NCBI GenBank assembly: GCA_007376385.1
Contig: VMGC01000002.1
Span: 136,372 to 200,371 of the forward strand
Reading direction: 5' to 3'
Source: Parcubacteria group bacterium Gr01-1014_8
GTDB taxonomy: Bacteria; Patescibacteriota; Minisyncoccia; Phycocordibacterales; UBA2100
DNA: 64,000 bases
Positions 8,438 to 63,863 of this stretch are shown piece by piece. The notes below the pieces were generated by a model. That model was not told where the DNA came from and ran no database searches. It worked only from the letters and a program-made list of their open reading frames with translations. The position numbers and the translations under genes were made by a program. Position 1 is the stretch's first letter, and each line of letters begins with the position of its first letter.

Positions 8438-8872
8438 ATGGAAGACAGGCCCTTTGTCGGTATTGGCGTAACGATACTTAAAGATGGAAAAATTCTCCTC
8501 GGCAAAAGAGTATCAACGTATGGGACCGGAGAATATCAAACGCCTGGCGGACATCTTGAGCCTAAAGAAGCTTTTGAGGCATGTGCGCGGCGAGAAACCT
8601 TGGAGGAGTGCGGACTCGAAATAGGCTCAATCCGTTTTCAATTTGTAGCAAATGCCGTAGGGTATGGTCTCGTGCATTACGTTCATATTGGTTTGATAAC
8701 GGAATGGAAGGCAGGTGAACCTAAAAATCTTGAACCTACAAAATGCGAAGGATGGGATTGGTACTCTCTTGACGCATTGCCGGAGCCTCTTTTTGTATAC
8801 ACGAAATGGTCTATAGAGGCACATCAAACAGGACTCAATTATTTCGATAGTGAGGCCCGACCAGCGAAATAA
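8438..8872 (+). CDS. NUDIX hydrolase
   Basis: Nudix box GGHLEPKEAFEACARRETLEECGL. Confidence 0.8.
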   Translation: MEDRPFVGIGVTILKDGKILLGKRVSTYGTGEYQTPGGHLEPKEAFEACARRETLEECGLEIGSIRFQFVANAVGYGLVHYVHIGLITEWKAGEPKNLEPTKCEGWDWYSLDALPEPLFVYTKWSIEAHQTGLNYFDSEARPAK

Positions 8873-8980
8873 AGGTTCCTCGGAGCTTGCTCCGAGGTAT
8901 TATGGAGCTCGCTTCGCTCGCGCAGTCTCGCAGCAGAGCTGCGAGGTATTGAACCTGTGTTTGCTCCTCGGCACGGAAAT
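8867..8980. repeat. Dispersed palindromic repeat, copy 1 (expanded variant with a nested 48-bp insertion; contains the TAA stop of the NUDIX gene)
   Basis: AAATAAAGGTTCCTCGGAGCTTGCTCCGAGGTAT...TGAACCTGTGTTTGCTCCTCGGCACGGAAAT matches copies at 22252, 29962 and 51309. Confidence 0.6.
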
Positions 8981-9076
8981 GCAACAGAGTACTTTTGCAT
9001 TTCTCTCGCAATGCTCGCAAATAAAATGTGAAGGCATCTTGACTCGATTTCGTGCACGGGTAGAGTATGGGGGTTC

Positions 9077-21019: not shown

Positions 21020-21550
21020 ATGCGTCCTGATACTATGGTTGTAGAAAAATACAGAGACGTCATGAAGCTTCCGCACGATATAGAAGCCGAGCTGGACGGT
21101 GCGCCTCTGTTTGAAAATTTGGAAGCTGCAATGGGGACACTTGAGCTCGAGCATAAACGCCGTCGCAACCTTTTAGAGCACGCTGGGAAGGCAGAACGTC
21201 TCAACTACCCTGATAAGGCAACTGCGATAAAAGCAGCGATAATGAATGGAAGGTCAGCAGCAAAAGAAACAGCTGCGTGGGAGGATTTTACGCAGTCGAA
21301 TCCTTCTGCAGAACAGGCGGCAATAGTTCTAGCGCACGTCTCTCATTTTAGGTCCGCGAAACCGACGCTGCTCGATATGGCAATTGATTTCTTTCTTCTT
21401 CGTATTCAGGAGGTTACTGATGCGAAAAAATCAAGAGAGATAGTGGCTCTCGCTGCAAATGCCATTCGCAGCAGGCATCTGGACGATCCCGAAAAAAAAG
21501 GATATTTACGGAGACTGCAACTCTTAAATGGAGTGGGCGAGGAAAAATGA
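21020..21550 (+). CDS. Hypothetical protein
   Basis: ORF only. Confidence 0.4.
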   Translation: MRPDTMVVEKYRDVMKLPHDIEAELDGAPLFENLEAAMGTLELEHKRRRNLLEHAGKAERLNYPDKATAIKAAIMNGRSAAKETAAWEDFTQSNPSAEQAAIVLAHVSHFRSAKPTLLDMAIDFFLLRIQEVTDAKKSREIVALAANAIRSRHLDDPEKKGYLRRLQLLNGVGEEK

Positions 21551-21684
21551 AAGGTTTCAACCCCCAAGGCAAGCCCTGGACTCTGGAAAACGAGCACCGC
21601 TCGTTTCCCAAATTCCGCGGCCTGTCTGCGTGCATCGCACAGGTACACATATATCGGCGGCATTCACCGTGGTACACTGGCACT

Positions 21685-22239
21685 CCCATGAACACAACGA
21701 TTACGACAGGGTGGCTGAAGTTTGTCATAGGATGGACAGCTGTGTTCCTATTCCGCTTGATACCATTCAGACCGCCGAATTTTGAGCCAATGTTGGCGAC
21801 GATCATGCCGTTCTCAAAGCGATACGGCGTTGTGGGGAGCTTTTTGTTCGGATTCCTCGGAATTGTTCTCTACGATGCAGTAACGTCCGGCTGGGGGATA
21901 TGGACACTTGTAACGTCCGTCTGCTACGGCCTGTTGGGTGTCGGAGCATATTTTTTCTTTAAGAATCGTGAGGCAACGGCAACACATTTTGTGATGTTCG
22001 GCGTCCCGAGTACGGTATTGTACGACGCTGTAACGATGATGATAGGACCCCTCTTCAATGGACAATCTTTTGCTGCGGCGCTCATAGGGCAAATTCCATT
22101 CACCGTCATGCATCTTCTTGGAACCATTGTATTTGCAACACTTCTCAGTCCCGCTTTATACCGCTGGGTCGTTCAAAATGATGTTTTGGAATTTTCTGTT
22201 CTATGGATGCAGGTTCGCTCGTTGATCGGCACTCGTTGA
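21685..22239 (+). CDS. Multi-TM membrane protein, possibly an ECF-transporter S-component-like substrate-binding subunit (track ORF starts at 21547; likely start is the MNTTITT Met)
   Basis: 5-6 hydrophobic helices; the N-terminal 46 aa of the track ORF are non-membrane and overlap the preceding gene. Confidence 0.45.
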   Translation, partial: PMNTTITTGWLKFVIGWTAVFLFRLIPFRPPNFEPMLATIMPFSKRYGVVGSFLFGFLGIVLYDAVTSGWGIWTLVTSVCYGLLGVGAYFFFKNREATATHFVMFGVPSTVLYDAVTMMIGPLFNGQSFAAALIGQIPFTVMHLLGTIVFATLLSPALYRWVVQNDVLEFSVLWMQVRSLIGTR

Positions 22240-22251
22240 AATTACTCCTGC

Positions 22252-22317
22252 TTTATTTCCGAGCCGAGGAGCAAACACAGGTTCAATACCTCGGAGCTTG
22301 CTCCGAAGAACCTTTAT
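22252..22317. repeat. Dispersed palindromic repeat, copy 2 (orientation opposite to copies 1 and 4)
   Basis: ATTTCCGAGCCGAGGAGCAAACACAGGTTCAATACCTCGGAGCTTGCTCCGAAGAACCTTTAT. Confidence 0.6.
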
Positions 22318-22891
22318 CTTTGCGAGGGCGAATAAATACAAATATATCATTCGCCGAGTAGGTGTCATCGGAATTTGCTCGAAGCTCGAGTTGACGTTGT
22401 CCCGGAAGAAGAAATCGCATGGGACCAGCGATAGAAGAAAGTCCAAAAACATGAGACGTATGGGCGCTGACTGGAATAGCTTGCATACCAAGTACCAGGT
22501 GTTCGCCAGGAGGTTGATTACGATATTGGATACGAAGCAATGGGCCTACTTGAGGTGGACATAATTCGAGCCCATGTGCCACAGCAATTTCACAAATATA
22601 TTTGTAGAGTCCCGTGCCATGCTTTATTTTGTCGTAATCGAAACCCAGGCTTCGTGCTGACAGTGTCACTAATTCTACTTCTCTGCTTTTTGGCGCGTCT
22701 TGAAATGATGCGGTTTCAAGGAGTTGATGCGCGTCTTGAGTGATGTAACATCCAGCATCATTGAGCTTCTTCCGGAAAGACGATGCGGATTCCGAATGGG
22801 CAGGAAGCATGAGGCGCATGAGAACTGGCAATTTCTCTATTGATGTATCAGCATGAGCCGTATCCGTATTGGACTTGGGATAGTTTTTCAT
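22283..22891 (-). CDS. Hypothetical protein; its 3' end runs into repeat copy 2
   Basis: ORF only. Confidence 0.4.
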   Translation of the reverse strand: MKNYPKSNTDTAHADTSIEKLPVLMRLMLPAHSESASSFRKKLNDAGCYITQDAHQLLETASFQDAPKSREVELVTLSARSLGFDYDKIKHGTGLYKYICEIAVAHGLELCPPQVGPLLRIQYRNQPPGEHLVLGMQAIPVSAHTSHVFGLSSIAGPMRFLLPGQRQLELRANSDDTYSANDIFVFIRPRKDKGSSEQAPRY

Positions 22892-23008: not shown

Positions 23009-23045
23009 CCCCAGTACCACAAGCCCTTCGGGCTTGGCTACGGGG
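23009..23045 (+). ncRNA. Conserved 37-nt leader hairpin motif (CCCCAGUACCACAAGCCCUUCGGGCUUGGCUACGGGG) in the pyrB 5' region; a paralogous copy lies in the uvrA leader
   Basis: 7-bp stem CAAGCCC/GGGCUUG with a UUCG tetraloop; compensatory C:G to U:A change in the copy at 53093. Confidence 0.5.
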
Positions 23046-23104
23046 CGAGGTTCATTGCATGAATATACTTGCGCGGGCGTGCAGTCCGTGGAGAAAATAA
23101 TGTT

Positions 23105-24016
23105 ATGCAACATCTGATCGAAACCCAGCAGTTCGATAGAGAAGCTCTTAGCAAATTGTTTGCGCTTGCGACCACTCTTGAGGGGAAGCGCGAAGAATCA
23201 CTCAAAGGCAAGATACTTGCCTCTCTTTTTTACGCACCGTCCACTCGAACGCGGCTTTCATTCGAATCAGCGATGATGCGGCTCGGAGGCAATGTTCTTT
23301 CGATGGAAAATGCAAGCGAATCATCGTCGGCAACAAAAGGCGAGACAATCGAAGACACGATACGCATCGTGGATGATTATGCCGACATTATCGTCCTCAG
23401 ACACACGGAAGTCGGGACTGCGGCGAAGGCGGCAGCTGTCTCGGAAGTTCCCATTATCAATGCAGGAGATGGCATTGGACAACACCCGACGCAAGCGTTT
23501 CTCGATCTGTATACAATAGAGCGCGAAATAGGGCGCACAGACGACTTCCACATTGCATTTGTGGGTAATCTTGCGTATTACCGGACCGCGCGTTCGCTTG
23601 CGTATCTTTTGGGAAAATACAATAAAGTAAAAATGACGTTTGTTTCTGCGCCGGAGCTCCGGATGAAAGATGATGTCAAGGATTATTTGAAGGAAAAAAA
23701 TGTGCATTTTGAAGAAACGGAAGACTTGGAAAGCACGATGAAAGTAGCAGATGTGGTGTATCAAACGCGGGTAGCGGAAGAATGGATACCGAACGAGGAG
23801 GATTACAAAAAACTTCGCGACAAATACGTCATCACGCGCCCAATGACCGACGTAATGAAAGAGGGGGCCATCCTCATTCATCCTCTGCCCCGTGCCGGAG
23901 AAATAGCACCTGAAGTCGACGATTCGCCTCACGCTGTCTACTTCAAACAAGCGGGGTATGGTGTGCTTGTGCGCATGGCGCTATTGAAGCTCTTAGCCAA
24001 TGGCGAGAAGGTGTAA
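23105..24016 (+). CDS. pyrB: Aspartate carbamoyltransferase catalytic subunit
   Basis: STRTRLSFE, HPTQ, HPLPR motifs; the alternative start at 23069 has a GAGG 8 nt upstream. Confidence 0.85.
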   Translation: MQHLIETQQFDREALSKLFALATTLEGKREESLKGKILASLFYAPSTRTRLSFESAMMRLGGNVLSMENASESSSATKGETIEDTIRIVDDYADIIVLRHTEVGTAAKAAAVSEVPIINAGDGIGQHPTQAFLDLYTIEREIGRTDDFHIAFVGNLAYYRTARSLAYLLGKYNKVKMTFVSAPELRMKDDVKDYLKEKNVHFEETEDLESTMKVADVVYQTRVAEEWIPNEEDYKKLRDKYVITRPMTDVMKEGAILIHPLPRAGEIAPEVDDSPHAVYFKQAGYGVLVRMALLKLLANGEKV

Positions 24017-28346: not shown

Positions 28347-29606
28347 ATGACGTTGTTACGTTTGGCACGTGTGGGAGGTGTTGCGGCTTTTGCTGTTCTC
28401 TTGTTCACACTCGTTTCGTTTGTGGGAAACCAGCGTCTTGCTTACGCAGATGAGGTGCCCGTTTCGGGCTCTGACATTGTGTGCGACACGTATCGTCAAC
28501 TGCAGGAACAGGGATTGCCGATCCCTCCAGGACTCGATGTGAGCGGTTGTGAAGGAGGTGGGGGAGGCGGCGGTGGTGGCGAACCGCCACTACCAACGGT
28601 TACAGAGTGCATAGACGGTATTGATAACGACGGAGATGGACGTACCGATTTTCTTCCGATATACGGCGACCCCGATTGTGATAACTTCTCTGATGATAGC
28701 GAGGCGGCGAGCGGAGGAGGCGGCGGTGGCGGTTCTACTCCAGCATGTGCCGATGGCATTGATAACGACGGCGATGGGCTCGTAGATAGTGTTGACCCGG
28801 GCTGCTCAGACACTTCCGATACTGACGAGGCCGATCCTACGGGGGGCGGCGTAGGAGGTGGTGGAGGTGGCGGAGGCGGAGGCCCCGCAGCGGCGTGCGA
28901 GGACAGCATAGACAATGACCTCGATGGTCTTAAAGACATGCAAGACCCAGGGTGTGAAAATGCTTCTGACAACGACGAAACCAACGGTTCTGGTGGAGGA
29001 GGAGGCGGCGGGGGAGGTGGCGAGGCAGCGACGACAACGGCACCAACTCCAGAAATTCTCGGCGCATCAACGCCAGCACAGGAACTTTCGTGCGACTCCT
29101 ACCTGACGGCATTCATTCGCTTCGGCGGAAAGAATGATGCAGACCAGGTTATGCGCCTCCAGAAAGTACTCAAAGATTACGAGAAGGCGGATGTGAATGA
29201 AAATGGTACCTACGATGCTGCAACTCTCAAGGCAGTACATGCATTCCAAACAAAGTATGCCGATGAAATTCTTACACCATGGGGTATCAAGAGCTCGACA
29301 GGCTATGTGTATCTCACGACGCGAAAGAAAGTGAATGAAATTCGGTGCGAGAATAAGAAGACATTTCCGCTTTCGGAAGAAGAACAGAAGAAAGTCGAGG
29401 AAACACGGGTTTCTGCGGCAGTCAGGGACATCGGCACAGACGCATCTCCCGCAAAACCAGCGGAGCCAGCAAAACCTGCAGTAGTAAAAGCTAAAGATGT
29501 AACGGACAGGACCGCCGATTCATCGTCAAAAGACGAGACAGTGCAGGTGAGCGGATTGAAGAGGGTGTGGGATTTCCTCGGCAGAATGTTCAACAGAGCG
29601 CGCTAA
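28347..29606 (+). CDS. Secreted protein with four C-x-DGIDNDGDG-x-D...DPGC Ca/metal-binding repeats (MopE-like) separated by poly-Gly linkers, plus a C-terminal peptidoglycan-binding (PG_binding_1-like) domain
   Basis: Signal/TM N-terminus; repeats TECIDGIDNDGDGRTD, ACADGIDNDGDGLVD, ACEDSIDNDLDGLKD; G8-12 runs; C-terminus LQKVLKDY...TLKAVHAFQTKYADEILTPWGIKSSTGYVY. Confidence 0.7.
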   Translation: MTLLRLARVGGVAAFAVLLFTLVSFVGNQRLAYADEVPVSGSDIVCDTYRQLQEQGLPIPPGLDVSGCEGGGGGGGGGEPPLPTVTECIDGIDNDGDGRTDFLPIYGDPDCDNFSDDSEAASGGGGGGGSTPACADGIDNDGDGLVDSVDPGCSDTSDTDEADPTGGGVGGGGGGGGGGPAAACEDSIDNDLDGLKDMQDPGCENASDNDETNGSGGGGGGGGGGEAATTTAPTPEILGASTPAQELSCDSYLTAFIRFGGKNDADQVMRLQKVLKDYEKADVNENGTYDAATLKAVHAFQTKYADEILTPWGIKSSTGYVYLTTRKKVNEIRCENKKTFPLSEEEQKKVEETRVSAAVRDIGTDASPAKPAEPAKPAVVKAKDVTDRTADSSSKDETVQVSGLKRVWDFLGRMFNRAR

Positions 29607-29884: not shown

Positions 29885-29922
29885 GGGAAGATAAAAAAGG
29901 CCGCGTTGAGCGGTTTTTTTAT
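29885..29922. terminator. Bidirectional terminator-like hairpin (AAAAAAGGCCGCGTTGAGCGGTTTTTTT)
   Basis: A-run/stem/T-run read directly. Confidence 0.5.
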
Positions 29923-29961
29923 TGGCGACGTAGAGCGAGTGAAATGAACGTGTACTCATGT

Positions 29962-30033
29962 TCATTTCCGAGCCGAGGAGCCAACATAGGGTCGAATGCC
30001 CCGCGGCTTGCCCGCGGAATGAATACCCTTTAT
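29962..30033. repeat. Dispersed palindromic repeat, copy 3 (most diverged)
   Basis: ATTTCCGAGCCGAGGAGCCAACATAGGGTCGAATGCC...CCTTTAT. Confidence 0.5.
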
Positions 30034-30458
30034 TGCAACTCATTATAAAAAAATATCAATGGTGTTTGACAACAAGCATGAATACGTATCGAAATACTTT
30101 TCCACATGGCTAATTCATTGACACTCCACGAGAACGCGCGATAATTCGCCTACGTTTCGTCGCGTGCGCAAAATGCGATAAAGCGAGGGGAACCAGCGGA
30201 CAATATGTCCGTTGAGAACATTTTTTTTACTCACAGCTGTCTTTTTGAAATGAAGAGACGAGGCATCGCTGACCGTGATGCGTCGTTTTTTATTATGCAA
30301 ATGGACGACTGAAGTCCATGGAGCGGCTTATTTCCATGAAATGAGCCGCTCCGTGAACTGCAAGGTTCATGAGAAAGGTCGAGTTCTGCATTGCGCCGTC
30401 CGTACGGAGGCACAATGTCAGGTTTATCAAAACTTATCAACATGAAAAATTCAAAGAT

Positions 30459-31355
30459 ATGACTAAGACTATGAAAATCGGTGCAGTTCTTGCAACAAGC
30501 GCGATGGTTTTGTCGCAGTTCGCAGCAATTCCTGCATACGCATGTGAGGACTGGTGCTGGGGCGAAGGAAGCTCTGACGACAACAGCGTCTACATAAAGG
30601 TTTCGAACTCAGGCACAATCTACAACGAAACTAAAGCTAAGGCAGACACTGGCGACAACGATGCCGGCGGAAGCTACGGCGGCGACGGCGGCTCTGCTGG
30701 AGACGGTGGCGACGGCGGCGAAGCTGATGTGGAAGGCGGTGTTAATTGGTGCGGAGAGTGCAGCGACGGATCGGACAGCGAAGCAAACGGAGGCGACGGC
30801 GGCAACGGCGGCGACTCGAACGGCGGCGATGCAGGTCCGGGTGGGCTCGTAGACACTGGGGATGCTGACGCAAACGCAGGAACAGTCAACACACTCAACA
30901 CGACCGATATCGCAGTTGAGGGATGTGGCTGTGAGGATGACCAGGATGAGTGCGGATGCATTCCTCCATGGCTCCGACGCGACGTTGACAACAGCGTCCG
31001 CGTGAAGGTCCACAACGACGGCACGATCAACAACGAAACTAAAGCTAAGGCAGACACTGGCGACAACGATGCCGGCGGAAGCTACGGCGGCGATGGTGGC
31101 GGCGATTGTCACTGTGACGGCGGTGGCGACGGTGGCGACGGCGGTGACGCTGAAGTTGGCGACGACGAAGAGGGCTGTGGTTGTGAATGGGACATCGGTG
31201 GCGGCGGCACAGCAAACGGCGGCGACGGCGGCGACGGCGGAGACGCTGACGGCGGCGACGGCGACGTAGGAGGCACGATCCGAACGGGCGACGCTCGATC
31301 GGACGCTGGCACTGTGAACGTGATGAACACGACTCTTGTTCGTGTAACTCGCTAG
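30459..31355 (+). CDS. Secreted acidic Gly/Asp-rich, Cys-containing repeat protein (two approximately 130-aa modules with a near-identical 65-bp DNA duplication)
   Basis: Signal peptide MKIGAVLATSAMVLSQFAAIPAYA; repeated NETKAKADTGDNDAGGSYGGDGG and TGDA..AGTVN..NTT blocks; CGEC/CGCE/CHCD Cys pairs. Confidence 0.6.
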   Translation: MTKTMKIGAVLATSAMVLSQFAAIPAYACEDWCWGEGSSDDNSVYIKVSNSGTIYNETKAKADTGDNDAGGSYGGDGGSAGDGGDGGEADVEGGVNWCGECSDGSDSEANGGDGGNGGDSNGGDAGPGGLVDTGDADANAGTVNTLNTTDIAVEGCGCEDDQDECGCIPPWLRRDVDNSVRVKVHNDGTINNETKAKADTGDNDAGGSYGGDGGGDCHCDGGGDGGDGGDAEVGDDEEGCGCEWDIGGGGTANGGDGGDGGDADGGDGDVGGTIRTGDARSDAGTVNVMNTTLVRVTR

Positions 31356-37524: not shown

Positions 37525-37695
37525 ACCACTCCTTCGGGGTTGGGTGAAAGTCCCAATCGGCGGTATAGCCCGCGAGTTCTTAGGGACACGATTTGGTGAG
37601 ATTCCAAAGCCGACCGTACAGTCGGGATGAAAGAAGGAAGCGAGGCACCCTTGTTGGATGCTTGCGTGGTAACCCCGATGGATCGGGGTTTTTTA
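37525..37695 (+). ncRNA. FMN riboswitch (RFN element) with a terminator expression platform (AACCCCGATGGATCGGGGTTTTTT at 37671-37694)
   Basis: GGGTGAAAGTCCCAATCGGCGGTATAGCCCGCGAG...GATTTGGTGAGATTCCAAAGCCGAC...AGTCGGGATGAAAGAAGG matches conserved FMN aptamer blocks; upstream of the rib operon. Confidence 0.85.
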
Positions 37696-49062: not shown

Positions 49063-49298
49063 GTATGGATAAGCCGGAACAAAAAGGGGGGATTGGCGGA
49101 TATCCGCATACGAGGGGAACGCCGCCTCGAGTTCCTGCTCGCATGGAAGGAAAGGTTCGACAAAAAGGGATACGGCCAGTGAAAAAGAAGAAAAGAGACA
49201 ATAAAGGGTAACCGGAAATACGCTGCCCTTCTGAGCCATCCAGTCGGCGGGTGTTTCCTTTGGATGGCAGTAACAGTGTATATTGTAGTTTCTTAAGT

Positions 49299-51314
49299 AT
49301 GGCAACATTCAAACTCGAATCATCATATAAGCCTGCTGGGGACCAACCGCAGGCAATACAAGCCCTGTACGATGGGCTGAAAAAAGGTAAGCGGGATCAG
49401 ACGCTTCTTGGCGTAACTGGGTCCGGCAAGACGTATACGATGGCGAGTATCATCGAAAAAATCGGCAAGCCAACGCTTGTCATTGCGCACAATAAGACGC
49501 TTGCGGCGCAGCTCGCATCCGAATATCGCGAGTTCTTTCCCACGCATGCGGTCCACTATTTCGTCTCATACTACGACTTCTATCAGCCGGAAGCATATGT
49601 GGCAGTTTCCGATACGTACATAGAGAAGGAAGCGCAGGTAAACGAGGATATCGAACGTTTGCGCCATGCTGCTACGCAGGCACTCTTAACGCGAAAGGAC
49701 GTTATCGTCGTCGCTTCTGTTTCTTGCATTTACGGTCTTGGAAGCCCCATTGAATATGAAAAAGTTAATTTGAAATTGCAGAAGGGAGAAACAATGACGC
49801 GGACAGGACTTACAAGAAAACTCGTATCAATGCATTTTGAGCGAACCCCTGGGGATCTGTCTCCGGGAACATTTCGGCCACTCGGAGCAGCCGTTGAGAT
49901 AATGCCGGCGAATGAGCGAGTCATTTATCGCATCGGCCTCTCGAGCGGAAAAATCGCGAACATCGAGGACATTGACCCGATTACACGTGTTATTAAAGGC
50001 GAAGAAGAAGCTGTATTTATTTTTCCCGCACGCCACTATGTTACGCCGGAGAATGTCGTGGAAGCGGCGCTTGCGGACATTGAGGCTGAACTCGAGGCAC
50101 AATTGAAGCATTTGAACGACGGCGGAAAAATACTTGAAGCGGAACGTTTGAAGCGGCGCACACGGCAAGATCTCACGATGATACGAGAGTTTGGATTTTG
50201 CAGCGGCATCGAGAACTACTCGCGTCATTTTGATAGGCGAAAACCAGGAGAGCCACCTTACACGTTGCTTTCGTACTTCCCGAAAAAGGCGGACGGTACT
50301 CCGGATTTTCTTACGGTCATAGACGAGTCGCACGTGACGGTGCCGCAGATAGGAGCGATGTATGCAGGGGATAGGGCGAGAAAATTGACCCTTATCGAGC
50401 ATGGGTTCAGACTTCCCAGCGCAGTAGATAATCGTCCGCTTAAATTCGAGGAGTTTTTGGAAAATACCGGACAGACGCTGTATACGAGCGCTACGCCATC
50501 TCTGTATGAATTGAATAAAAGCGGGAAGCCAGTCGAAATGATAGTAAGACCGACTGGCCTCTTGGACCCAGAGATACTAGTGAGACCGATAATAGGGAGA
50601 GGAGACTACGAAGGCCAAGTCCGCGATTTCATCAAAGAAGCAGAGGCGGTAACAAAACGAGGCGCGCGGTCGCTAGTGACCGTCCTCACCAAGAAAATGG
50701 CAGAAGACCTTGCGCAATTTCTCGTAGAACGCGGAATAAAAGCGCGCTATGTGCATAGCGACGTCCTTACTATCGAGCGCATTGAGATTCTCACAGATTT
50801 TAGGAAAGGTGTGTTCGACGTCTTGGTAGGTGTGAACTTGCTTCGTGAAGGATTGGACCTCCCTGAAGTTGAGCTGGTGGGAATTTTAGATGCTGATAAA
50901 GAAGGATTTCTTCGCTCGGAAACCTCACTTATACAGACCATGGGTCGCGCCGCACGAAATGTGAATGGACGTGTGCTTCTATACGCAGACAATATTACTG
51001 GCTCAATGGAGCGGGCAATAGGCGAGACGAATCGCCGCAGAGGGGTACAGGCAGAGTACAACAAAAAACACGGCATTACGCCGAAAACGATAGAAAAAAA
51101 GATACGAGATATCACGGGCGATATTGCGAGGGTGCGAGAACGCGCAATTAAGGAGCTAGCGGACATGGATACTGCTGCGTACGGCGGCGATAAGAGGAAA
51201 ATGATAAAGGATAAACGCCGCCAGATGCATGAAGCGGCCGATAGATTGGATTTCGAGACGGCGGCACTGCTGCGCGATGAGATACGCATCCTTGAACACG
51301 GCGTTTCAAAATAA
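49299..51314 (+). CDS. uvrB: Excinuclease ABC subunit B
   Basis: GVTGSGKT Walker A, helicase motifs, C-terminal UVR domain (FETAALLRDEIRILE). Confidence 0.9.
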   Translation: MATFKLESSYKPAGDQPQAIQALYDGLKKGKRDQTLLGVTGSGKTYTMASIIEKIGKPTLVIAHNKTLAAQLASEYREFFPTHAVHYFVSYYDFYQPEAYVAVSDTYIEKEAQVNEDIERLRHAATQALLTRKDVIVVASVSCIYGLGSPIEYEKVNLKLQKGETMTRTGLTRKLVSMHFERTPGDLSPGTFRPLGAAVEIMPANERVIYRIGLSSGKIANIEDIDPITRVIKGEEEAVFIFPARHYVTPENVVEAALADIEAELEAQLKHLNDGGKILEAERLKRRTRQDLTMIREFGFCSGIENYSRHFDRRKPGEPPYTLLSYFPKKADGTPDFLTVIDESHVTVPQIGAMYAGDRARKLTLIEHGFRLPSAVDNRPLKFEEFLENTGQTLYTSATPSLYELNKSGKPVEMIVRPTGLLDPEILVRPIIGRGDYEGQVRDFIKEAEAVTKRGARSLVTVLTKKMAEDLAQFLVERGIKARYVHSDVLTIERIEILTDFRKGVFDVLVGVNLLREGLDLPEVELVGILDADKEGFLRSETSLIQTMGRAARNVNGRVLLYADNITGSMERAIGETNRRRGVQAEYNKKHGITPKTIEKKIRDITGDIARVRERAIKELADMDTAAYGGDKRKMIKDKRRQMHEAADRLDFETAALLRDEIRILEHGVSK

Positions 51315-51371
51315 AGGTTCCTTGAAGCAAGCTCCGAGAGCTCGAACTCGTGTTTGTTCCTCGGCTCGGAC
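51309..51371. repeat. Dispersed palindromic repeat, copy 4 (contains the uvrB TAA stop)
   Basis: AAATAAAGGTTCCTTGAAGCAAGCTCCGAGAGCTCGAACTCGTGTTTGTTCCTCGGCTCGGACAT. Confidence 0.6.
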
Positions 51372-51450
51372 ATGCATATAAGTACACATGCATATCACTC
51401 GCTCTACGTCGCAAATAAGGCATAATGAAAAGCAATTTAATACTGGTGCC

Positions 51451-52392: not shown

Positions 52393-52584
52393 CTACTCCC
52401 GGTCAAAGACCCACACGTACAGTACAAACCAGCCGATGATGGTCCATGCGATGGCAAGATTGGTAAATATGACGCCGCCAGCGTTCGGATGGCGCCGTAT
52501 CAAAGCCAGTATTCCGGGGAAAAAATACACGTATGTAGCCATAGCCACGTAGAGATAAACCATGAAATGCAAAAAAAGCAACAT
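52393..52584 (-). CDS. Superinfection-immunity-like small membrane protein (Imm family), paralog 1
   Basis: FFPGILALIRRHPNAGGVIFTNLAIAWTIIGWFVLYVWVF pattern. Confidence 0.6.
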   Translation of the reverse strand: MLLFLHFMVYLYVAMATYVYFFPGILALIRRHPNAGGVIFTNLAIAWTIIGWFVLYVWVFDRE

Positions 52585-52709
52585 GTTAACGAGTGCCCTG
52601 TTCCACGTAGGTCAATGAGGGCAAACGAACGTGTTACTGATCTGTAAGCGGATTCTACCAGTCCACCCGGGCAAAGGCAATTTTTTCGGTTGCCCATGAA
52701 AAAAATCGG

Positions 52710-52931
52710 CTAATTAGTACTTTGTCTGTCAAATACCCACGCGAACAAGACAAACCATCCAATGATGGTCCAGCCGATGGCGATGTTCGTAAAGAAAATA
52801 CCGCCGGGACTAGAATGGCGCAGAATGACAGCCAATATTGTGGGGAAGAAATACACGAACAACCCTCCCGCAACGTATGCGTATATCATGAGCAATTGTA
52901 ACCACAAAGTCGAAGGTATCAAATAGACCAC
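52710..52931 (-). CDS. Superinfection-immunity-like small membrane protein (Imm family), paralog 2 (GTG start)
   Basis: FFPTILAVILRHSSPGGIFFTNIAIGWTIIGWFVLFAWVF; approximately 60% identical to paralog 1. Confidence 0.6.
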   Translation of the reverse strand: MVYLIPSTLWLQLLMIYAYVAGGLFVYFFPTILAVILRHSSPGGIFFTNIAIGWTIIGWFVLFAWVFDRQSTN

Positions 52932-53092: not shown

Positions 53093-53129
53093 CCCCGGTA
53101 CCACAAGTCCTTCGGACTTGACTACGGGG
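53093..53129 (+). ncRNA. Second copy of the 37-nt leader hairpin motif (CCCCGGUACCACAAGUCCUUCGGACUUGACUACGGGG) in the uvrA 5' UTR, followed by a second hairpin (CCCCTCG...CGAGGGG)
   Basis: Paralogous to 23009-23045 with a compensatory C:G to U:A change in the stem. Confidence 0.5.
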
Positions 53130-53173
53130 CAGGTAACCCCTCGGACAAGACGAGGGGCGAGGCTATTTGCATC

Positions 53174-63787: not shown

Positions 63788-63863
63788 GGGCCCATAGCTC
63801 AGTTGGTAGAGCACCTCATTTGCAATGAGGGGGTCAGCGGTTCGAATCCGCTTGGGTCCACCA
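63788..63863 (+). tRNA. tRNA-Ala (anticodon TGC), CCA encoded
   Basis: Cloverleaf GGGCCCA/TGGGTCC acceptor stem with the G3:U70 Ala identity pair, TTTGCAA anticodon loop, GGTTCGAATCC T-arm. Confidence 0.9.

Follow-up and report, generated by a model that had tools for sequence, protein, structure and literature searches.

A structured two-domain intergenic repeat in a Kaiserbacteria-like Parcubacteria genome and its occurrence in other Patescibacteria

The Patescibacteria, or candidate phyla radiation (CPR), have tiny and streamlined genomes that are thought to be poor in repeats and in known regulatory RNAs. Here we describe a structured, non-coding repeat found in a 64,000-nucleotide stretch of the genome of Parcubacteria group bacterium Gr01-1014_8 (contig VMGC01000002.1, positions 136,372 to 200,371; this whole stretch is called the window below), a Kaiserbacteria-like Parcubacteria metagenome-assembled genome (MAG). 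The element is a unit of ~100-190 bp with the order AATAAA, domain 1, domain 2, AATAA, and the window holds four copies of it, here named A to D. More than 100 further copies were recovered from Patescibacteria genomes and from metagenomes; loci fetched for comparison carry labels beginning with L.

Copies of the repeat in the window

A sequence-only reading had picked out four copies of a palindromic repeat of about 65 bp in the window, and all four are present. A 20-nt core pattern, TGTTKGYTCCTCGGCNCGGA, matches the window at these four sites only, where 0.03 matches are expected from 100 dinucleotide shuffles, and the copies are linked pairwise by the repeat finder (D13, D18 and I1-I5). A scan with a covariance model of domain 2 built in this analysis, R1, also returned the four copies and nothing more. 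The copies and the open reading frames (ORFs) and signals that adjoin them are as follows.

8438-8872, + strand: ORF of a NUDIX protein, with its TAA stop codon supplied by the element's AATAAAGG
8867-9027, + strand: copy A, long form (R1 69.5 bits, E 1e-17)
8867-8872, + strand: AAATAA at the 5' end of copy A, including the NUDIX stop codon (8870-8872)
8873-8956, + strand: domain 1 of copy A, outer stem AGGTTC/GAACCT
8956-9027, + strand: domain 2 of copy A
21547-22239, + strand: ECF riboflavin-transporter S-component gene, in opposite orientation to copy B
22250-22318, - strand: copy B, shortened (R1 19.8 bits, 44 model positions deleted)
22280-22318, - strand: domain 1 of copy B, intact
22283-22891, - strand: ORFan hypothetical protein G01um10148_557, 202 aa, on the same strand as copy B
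22368-22341, - strand: promoter-like ATGACA-16-tgTATATT inside the ORFan, ~20 nt upstream of copy B
29900-29922, no strand assigned: GC hairpin GCCGCGTTGAGCGG between an A-run and a T-run, immediately next to the 3' AATAAAAAA of copy C
29916-30035, - strand: copy C, closest to the family consensus (R1 93.4 bits, E 1e-24)
29988-29916, - strand: domain 2 of copy C, terminating in GCCAATAAAAA
30035-30026, - strand: 5' edge of copy C, CAATAAAGGG
30042-30072, - strand: promoter-like site, TTGTCA (30072-30067), 19-nt spacer and TATAAT (30047-30042), read directly from the sequence
49251-51314, + strand: uvrB ORF, with its TAA stop codon in the element's AATAAAGG
51308-51421, + strand: copy D (R1 74.4 bits)
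5' end of copy D, + strand: AAAATAAAGG, including the uvrB stop codon (51312-51314)
51315-51348 and 51349-51421, + strand: domain 1 and domain 2 of copy D

Domain 1 of copy A contains two hairpins, CCTCGGAGCTTGCTCCGAGG and CTCGCAGCAGAGCTGCGAG, and an extra conserved module, GGAGCTCGCTTCGCTCGCGCAG. The extra module, of 49 nt, is also found in copies from Kaiserbacteria and Paceibacterota (L001, L007 and L014). Copy B has lost ~44 nt from within domain 2, between two similar strings, CTCGGAAAT and GTCGCAAAT, so that only TGTGTTTGCTCCTCGGCTCGGAAATAAAGC is left of that domain. Read on the + strand, this copy is a hairpin followed by CUUUAUCUUU, 10 nt past the stop codon of the ECF riboflavin-transporter S-component. 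On the - strand, the last ~12 codons of the ORFan come from domain 1 of copy B (~35 nt into it); the ORFan has no homologue except its own record among 5.8 billion proteins, and as a real gene it is doubtful.

Copy C lies in a 760-nt intergenic region in which no ORF adjoins it. Its domain 1 consists of an outer stem, AGGGT/ACCCT, and a hairpin, CCGCGGGCAAGCCGCGG, and the copy folds with z-scores of -3.5 and -3.7 on the two strands. The promoter-like site upstream lies on the strand of the element and stops 7 nt (30036-30041) short of CAATAAAGGG; its spacer is 1 nt above the limit of the promoter tool, which is why the tool did not report it. At the other end, the site at 29900-29922 has the appearance of a bidirectional terminator, and its + strand T-run corresponds to the A-rich end of copy C read on the opposite strand. 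Two secreted-looking proteins rich in Gly/Asp/Cys repeats (GGDGG, DNDxDG), encoded at 28347-29606 and 30369-31355, flank the copy; most of the GGCGAC-type tandem repeats that the repeat finder listed lie in them.

Copy D stands between uvrB and murB. The longest ORF for murB begins at an ATG (51388) within copy D, and comparison with the closest relative, a Kaiserbacteria MAG (L143), places the true start at ATG 51451 (MLTIKENVPL against MIEIKEHVPL in the relative). The same genome has a fifth copy, degenerate and situated 7.4 kb upstream of where the window begins (L146:1-140), which gives five copies in ~72 kb. The proposal that the copies sit at gene 3' ends is borne out by copies A and D, where the stop codons of the NUDIX gene and of uvrB fall within the element as had been noted; it does not describe copy C, in its intergenic region, or copy B, which is opposite to the + strand gene, and it does not hold for the family as a whole (see below).

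Architecture and covariation of the unit

The unit is longer than first described. Copies A, C and D continue for 45-50 nt 3' of the former limit, through a second covarying hairpin to a tail of the form ...CTCGCTCTACGTCGC(C/A)AATAA, and the consensus of ~65 bp corresponds to the 5' half only. Domain 1 is built on an outer stem, AGGKTY/RAMCCT, around zero to three variable hairpins, and in other genomes it ranges from a bare 5-bp stem with a tetraloop up to more than 130 nt; its modules recur between genomes, an example being the GGAGCTCGCTTCGCTCGC piece of copy A. The A-rich AATAAA stands before it and a U-rich tract (UGUGUUUG; UGUGUUKG, UUUUUGG) comes after it; on the opposite strand UUUAUU follows. 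With these flanks, domain 1 looks like a weak bidirectional terminator. The earlier remark that no T-run follows the repeat is thus correct only in part; domain 2 is followed by A-rich sequence, and the terminator scanner flagged only copy A, on the reverse strand. An orphan hairpin resembling domain 1, GAATAAAGGGTATTCGGCCCTTTTTT, is present with a T-run and without domain 2 at L051:144-180, where it looks like a plain intrinsic terminator, which suggests that domain 1 may be derived from, or may be decaying into, ordinary terminators.

Domain 2 is ~73 nt long (range 65-84 nt) and folds into a long hairpin closed by the outer stem UUGGC/GCCAA. Two unpaired blocks of ~15-20 nt each that hardly vary, CUCCUCGGCUCGG on the 5' side and CNCUCGCUCUACGUCGCC (C-N-CUCGCUCUACGUCGCC) on the 3' side, accompany an apical hairpin (hp2) whose arms vary freely among copies with complementarity kept. 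Among 94 distinct copies, 94.5% of the domain 2 pairs are standard, compared with 42-54% in controls with slid partners, and the cells with a double change number 225, compared with 52 ± 6 in shuffles. The outer stem also covaries, occurring as UUGGC/GCCAA, UUUGC/GCAAA, CUGUC/GACAG and CGGAC/GUCCG, and is confirmed by two diverged copies that lie outside the search pattern, CUGUC/GACAG in the degenerate fifth copy (L146:1-140) and CGGAC/GUCCG in the second copy of L100. A further short helix, CGGC/GUCG with a CUCCU bulge, is possible, its bases being fixed by the search pattern.

AATAA(A) is present on both sides in ~75% of copies. Besides the shortened copy B and the degenerate copy in L146, there are tandem or remnant copies (L008, L041 and L119), and tandem units share one AATAA. 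In an AT-rich subfamily (L035, L041, L057, L064, L080, L093, L109, L117, L127 and L138), domain 1 is replaced by a conserved extension, CATATTCGCTTCGCTCAAAATAAAATATTAAAAATAAAATATAACGGATACGATATTGGCT, which resembles the 3' tail of another copy; members are flanked on both sides by AATAAAATATT, and L041 comprises two tandem domain 2 units 81 nt apart. The idea that the ATG of this subfamily (CATATTCGCTTCGCTC...) serves as the start of a divergent gene was dropped, as the 4 of ~9 copies in which it does so are what frame chance gives. A conserved micro-ORF in domain 2 (in copy C an ATG...CAA TAA is in frame) was likewise rejected, domain lengths of 65-84 nt showing no steps of three.

As regards the level at which the structure is formed, both strands of the element fold well (z -2.6 to -5). 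The hp2 pairs comprise 912 Watson-Crick pairs, 10 internal G.T and 25 A.C, of which ~9 A.C represent one recurrent loop-proximal position; in domain 1 the use of G.U is equal on the two strands (27 versus 21), and G.U pairs are rare (~1-3%) and symmetric between strands. No transcribed strand can be named, because wobble is low and strand-symmetric, and this pattern is more like that of a DNA palindrome than that of an ordinary structured RNA. An apparent wobble signal for the reverse strand in the outer stem was rejected as an artefact of the search pattern, which fixes the 3' arm.

Promoter-like signals are confined to a minority of copies. A -10-like TAAAAT overlaps the 5' AATAA with a well-spaced -35 in 8 of 56 copies. 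L107, with TTGACA-17-TAAAAT, is one of them, and the sites cluster 0-14 nt from the edge of the element; most copies have no comparable promoter on either strand. The possibility of a small RNA with its own terminator was rejected, since a forward-strand terminator follows only 3 of 94 copies. In 16 of 94 the A-rich 3' end is instead fused to a hairpin that would terminate a convergent gene, the arrangement seen in copy C.

Distribution, ends and genomic context

The existence of the family beyond the window, which the sequence-only reading had proposed as a check, is clear from the fifth copy in the same genome and from searches elsewhere. An exact scan with the strict 20-mer pattern over 185,579 genomes, one genome per species, returned 18 loci, of which 11 are true copies, and 10 of these 11 come from records whose titles name Patescibacteria: Paceibacterota, Saccharibacteria, three Kaiserbacteria contigs, the unclassified bacterium CG10_46_32 (L008) and several 'Patescibacteria group' MAGs. 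The eleventh copy (L012) is binned as Gammaproteobacteria. A looser gapped pattern applied to a metagenome collection gave at least 120 loci, with ~100 true copies among the matches listed, mostly from groundwater samples. Since the strict 20-mer is present in only 22% of the metagenome copies, the 11 genome matches suggest that carriers are a few dozen species among the 185,579 and that the element is sporadic. Despite this rarity among species, its sequence is nearly identical from Saccharibacteria to Kaiserbacteria, and the window copies are nearer to copies from other metagenomes than to each other (copy C scores 0.94 against L083 and 0.72-0.84 against its window mates). Beyond the index copies, R1 finds about one extra copy per 100 kb in 870 kb of flanking sequence.

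No true copy was found in IMG/VR contigs, phage records or plasmids, searched by three viral pattern scans checked with the covariance model and by blastn, and carriage by phages or plasmids was therefore rejected. Rfam gave no match at the gathering threshold for the window, at E<=1 for three loci or at E<=10 for copy D, and a literature search that included literal sequence strings turned up no account of such a repeat. Metagenome assemblies tend to break at the element: 11 of 96 copies lie at the end of their locus, and independent assemblies of this genome stop inside copy A.

Comparison with related genomes supports the suggestion that the element is polymorphic in its presence. In L143, whose UvrB is 87% identical, uvrB and murB overlap by ATGA without the element, whereas in the window they are separated by 136 nt that hold copy D. 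Two further relatives (L144 and L145) have different uvrB-murB spacers and no element, and R1 detected no copy in 44 kb from the three relatives. The polymorphism is seen at this single locus. At copy A the NUDIX relatives are at most 65% identical and too distant for synteny, and at copy B the neighbouring ORFan has no homologue apart from its own record.

The ends of the element are sharp. When copy C is compared with four copies from other samples, homology begins at AATAAAGGG and stops at GCCAATAA, with unrelated flanks, and within this alignment domain 1 differs by nested hairpin indels. Terminal inverted repeats are absent: the 5' end, AATAAAGG(K)T, is unlike the reverse-complemented 3' end, TTTATTGGCG, and the ends are instead direct repeats. 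Nor was a variable target-site duplication found, as the two flanks of a copy are hardly more alike (4.33) than flanks of different copies (4.14; 352 of 2000 permutations as high), and the likeness of the flanks of a single copy is limited to the constant AATAA(A). The comparison with MITEs made from the sequence alone falls on these two points.

Orientation is not biased, either with respect to the nearest ORFs (++ 24, -- 19, -+ 15 and +- 9), so that a position at gene 3' ends is not general, or with respect to replication: GC skew is positive over the whole window, and the five copies run + + - - + (n=5). Where flanking genes are homologous, the element is yet found at another position or reversed (L031/L034, L080/L083 and L001/L116). 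It occurs between rpoB and rpoC in the forward direction (L013) and between secY and adk in the antisense direction (L056), and its other neighbours, such as rplR (ribosomal protein L18), rpsI (ribosomal protein S9) and mraZ, are ordinary housekeeping genes. Among the fetched loci no gene family recurs beside the element, and no orphan pairs of domain 1 and domain 2 were found around an ORF. For ~11 upstream ORFs in the same orientation as the element, the stop codon is the 5' TAA itself, and a few ORFs read on for ~30 nt within domain 1; several copies directly follow the T-run of a terminator.

The window contains other features that are separate from this repeat. A second, unrelated repeat of 38 nt, CCCCAGTACCACAAGCCCTTCGGGCTTGGCTACGGGGC, occurs at 23009-23046 and 53093-53130 (89% identical; family D12) as a long imperfect hairpin with a UUCG loop. 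One copy is ~20 nt upstream of a pyrB-like ORF (23069-24016) and the other is at the 5' end of the uvrA ORF as called; because the UvrA of a relative is 64 aa shorter, the latter probably lies in the 5' untranslated region, and the repeat may be a shared leader motif. An FMN riboswitch (37526-37642, + strand, 104 bits) precedes riboflavin genes. At 52402-52857 lie two small genes in tandem (repeat D6; 75% identity across 130 nt), the counterparts of the Imm_superinfect-family pair in L143. Finally, tRNA-Ala (63788-63863) is followed by a large serine-recombinase-like gene (MTKYFIYCRKSSEDEERQILSIEAQL...; L148:11260-12962, which spans window position ~63770 to just past 64000), an arrangement that suggests an integrated element at tRNA-Ala just outside the window.

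Possible nature of the element and known systems

We favour, with a probability of about 0.5, the interpretation that the element is a structured repeat which is non-autonomous and spreads horizontally, comparable with ERIC, BOX and Correia elements. This interpretation draws on its sharp ends, its independence of orientation and context, the truncated and tandem copies, the filled and empty uvrB-murB sites, the lack of synteny, and an occurrence that is sporadic yet near-identical in sequence. The element would then spread within and between genomes as a non-autonomous mobile sequence. A trans-acting enzyme would recognise the invariant loops of domain 2 together with the hairpin, and insertion would take place in AATAA/TTTATT tracts, such as are commonly found at stop codons and in the A/T runs beside terminators. 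Such a preferred target would explain why TAA stop codons are frequently shared and why copies contact terminator hairpins. Domain 1, standing between an A-tract and a U-rich tract, probably works as a 3' hairpin or as a weak terminator in both directions, and the host could then tolerate insertions.

Several observations weigh against mobility. In the fetched loci the copies are not accompanied by a transposase, a recombinase or any other particular gene, and the element has neither terminal inverted repeats nor a variable target-site duplication; the constant AATAA(A) may belong to the unit itself. No copy was seen in viral contigs, phage records or plasmids able to transfer between hosts. 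The comparison of filled and empty sites comprises a single pair, uvrB-murB, for which deletion in the relative is possible instead. Copies within one genome are old and diverged with their stems intact, which also fits selection by the host, for example on a functional RNA, and in a minority of copies a good promoter is present where the element begins. The collection was, moreover, gathered by sequence patterns, so that the invariance of the loop blocks is inflated and diverged relatives are hidden.

More tentatively, domain 2 might be the recognition module of an undescribed system specific to Patescibacteria, acting either as a structured non-coding RNA or as a hairpin-dependent substrate for DNA mobility. 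In the RNA version, the module would be released from transcripts at the flanking AAUAAA and would act through its CUCCUC-containing loops or through a dedicated protein. In the DNA version, hairpin-dependent mobility or recombination would proceed without inverted repeats or target duplications.

A host-maintained, cis-acting RNA element, in the form of a bidirectional terminator or attenuator, an RNase processing site or an mRNA-stabilising 3' hairpin, is an unlikely account, although such a role is compatible with a mobile origin. Stabilisation of mRNA by 3' hairpins has been proposed for REP and ERIC. The composition of domain 1 (A-tract, GC-based stem and U-rich tract, with UUUAUU on the other strand), the orphan hairpin with its T-run in L051, and the ~11 co-oriented ORFs that end in the TAA of the element all speak for a role of this kind, as do the hairpin and U-rich tail that copy B places 10 nt past a + strand gene, the good folding on both strands, and the intercistronic copies in operons, which must be transcribed. 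However, a simple hairpin function leaves the ~40 nearly invariant unpaired nucleotides of domain 2 unexplained, there is no orientation bias towards the gene supposedly served, and efficient termination at the rpoB-rpoC and secY-adk copies would be harmful. Close relatives do without the element, and very few species have it.

Less probable still is that the copies are small RNA genes or processed RNAs of a new CPR-specific class, whose invariant loops pair with targets or bind a conserved protein; the CUCCUC bulge, for example, mimics an anti-Shine-Dalgarno sequence. Strongly covarying helices with invariant loops are the usual signature of a structured RNA, there is no conserved ORF, copy C has TTGTCA-19-TATAAT upstream and a hairpin with a T-run downstream, and the -10-like sites of 8 of 56 copies are clustered in position. 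Most copies are nevertheless promoterless on both strands, the scarcity of forward-strand terminators (3 of 94) and the absence of an Rfam match are unfavourable, the rare and symmetric G.U pairs point to no transcribed strand, and a sporadic occurrence with truncated or degenerate copies and no synteny would be unusual for a conserved RNA gene.

We regard as improbable that the element is a folded-DNA site for a recombinase or an HUH-type nuclease, that is, an attC-like hairpin, a hairpin like the ends of IS200/IS605 elements (PATE) or a nic-site-like hairpin. The imperfect palindrome of 57-140 nt, with its conserved unpaired bases and variable apex, is reminiscent of attC, the stems are near-perfect in Watson-Crick pairing, and constant short direct repeats surround a unit whose tandem copies share one AATAA. 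The arms GTTGGC...GCCAAT, however, are in the wrong order compared with the RYYYAAC...GTTRRRY of attC, the neighbours are housekeeping genes and not cassettes, and neither an integrase nearby nor an adjacent Y1/HUH gene was found. There is also no replication-strand bias, unlike elements of the IS200/IS605 type, and the hairpins of the two domains differ, unlike a left and a right end. Chance or low-complexity similarity, or an assembly artefact of the chimeric kind for which MAG contigs call for general caution, is refuted by four copies where 0.03 are expected, R1 E-values of 1e-17 to 1e-24, recovery of copy A in separately assembled versions of its locus and more than 100 copies from unrelated samples.

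Whichever account holds, a 100-190 bp non-coding element persists inside essential operons and is near-identical from Saccharibacteria to Kaiserbacteria, yet is absent from close relatives; it either marks gene flow among uncultured organisms or is a functional RNA or DNA module specific to them. It also has a practical consequence for annotation, donating stop codons and C-terminal residues to annotated proteins and misleading start calls such as that of murB. The R1 covariance model could serve for a census of the element and for a direct test of its mobility.

Among known repeats, a close likeness is to the enterobacterial repetitive intergenic consensus (ERIC, or IRU), which is ~127 bp long. 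Both have long variants that arise through insertions at fixed internal sites, and neither has a known transposase. Both are imperfect palindromes of similar size, intergenic or intercistronic, in either orientation and of low to moderate copy number, and both are very highly conserved across distant hosts at non-orthologous sites. They share no sequence similarity and belong to different phyla; the present element has two hairpin domains where ERIC has one long palindrome, and it differs in its large invariant unpaired blocks and in the constant AATAA at both ends. The BOX elements of Streptococcus pneumoniae have the order boxA-boxB(n)-boxC; as here, mobility is inferred and no enzyme for it is known. 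They too are intergenic, structured and non-coding, and hairpin modules that vary in number stand between their constant parts. The sequences are unrelated, however, and here the variable modules lie inside the stem of domain 1, upstream of a single constant domain; the element is found phylum-wide, whereas BOX is restricted to one genus. With the Correia (NEMIS) elements of Neisseria and with MITEs the element has in common that it is a small non-autonomous repeat at gene boundaries, with presence/absence polymorphism, overlap with stop codons and promoter- or terminator-like signals. The lack of terminal inverted repeats and of a variable or TA-type duplication sets it apart, no related insertion sequence was found, and assignment to the MITEs was rejected because there are no inverted repeats and no variable duplication.

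Likeness to REP, BIME and REPIN sequences, which had been proposed together with that to MITEs, extends to being an extragenic palindromic repeat that often follows genes. REPs are 20-40 nt long, have a GTAG/GTGG head, occur in hundreds of copies and have a cognate RAYT gene, whereas the unit described here is 100-190 nt long, has two domains and is present in four copies in 64 kb, or about one extra copy per 100 kb of flank. There is no short palindrome headed by GTAG: the only GTAG, on the reverse strand (GACGTAGAGCG), is followed by no complementary stem, and with the size also wrong a REP was rejected. With attC sites the element shares an imperfectly palindromic form of similar length, in which certain unpaired bases are conserved and the apex varies, and a frequent position right after a stop codon; it was excluded from this class by its arms, GTTGGC...GCCAAT on both strands compared with R''/R', by housekeeping neighbours in both orientations, and by the lack of an integrase or cassette arrays. 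Derivation from IS200/IS605 (PATE) was rejected because the hairpins of domains 1 and 2 are unrelated and both strands of one replichore are used (n=5).

The stem-loop arrays called TIGR (Tas systems) are frequent in CPR genomes and consist of box C (RUGAUGA), box D (CUGA) and dual spacers next to a Tas (Nop-domain) gene (PMC12045711). They resemble the element in their variable palindromic stems, short conserved loop motifs and occurrence in CPR genomes (PMC12045711); the consensus of the element is without box C/D motifs, and its copies have no common neighbour gene and no Tas gene, so that a TIGR array was rejected. The earlier description of a dispersed, multi-stem, non-coding repeat family that is not a classic terminator is thus retained. 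What makes the element unusual is that it is conserved across a whole phylum of streamlined CPR genomes and that its invariant unpaired blocks are large; among known systems it is an interspersed repeat resembling ERIC, BOX and Correia rather than a classic REP, MITE or terminator.

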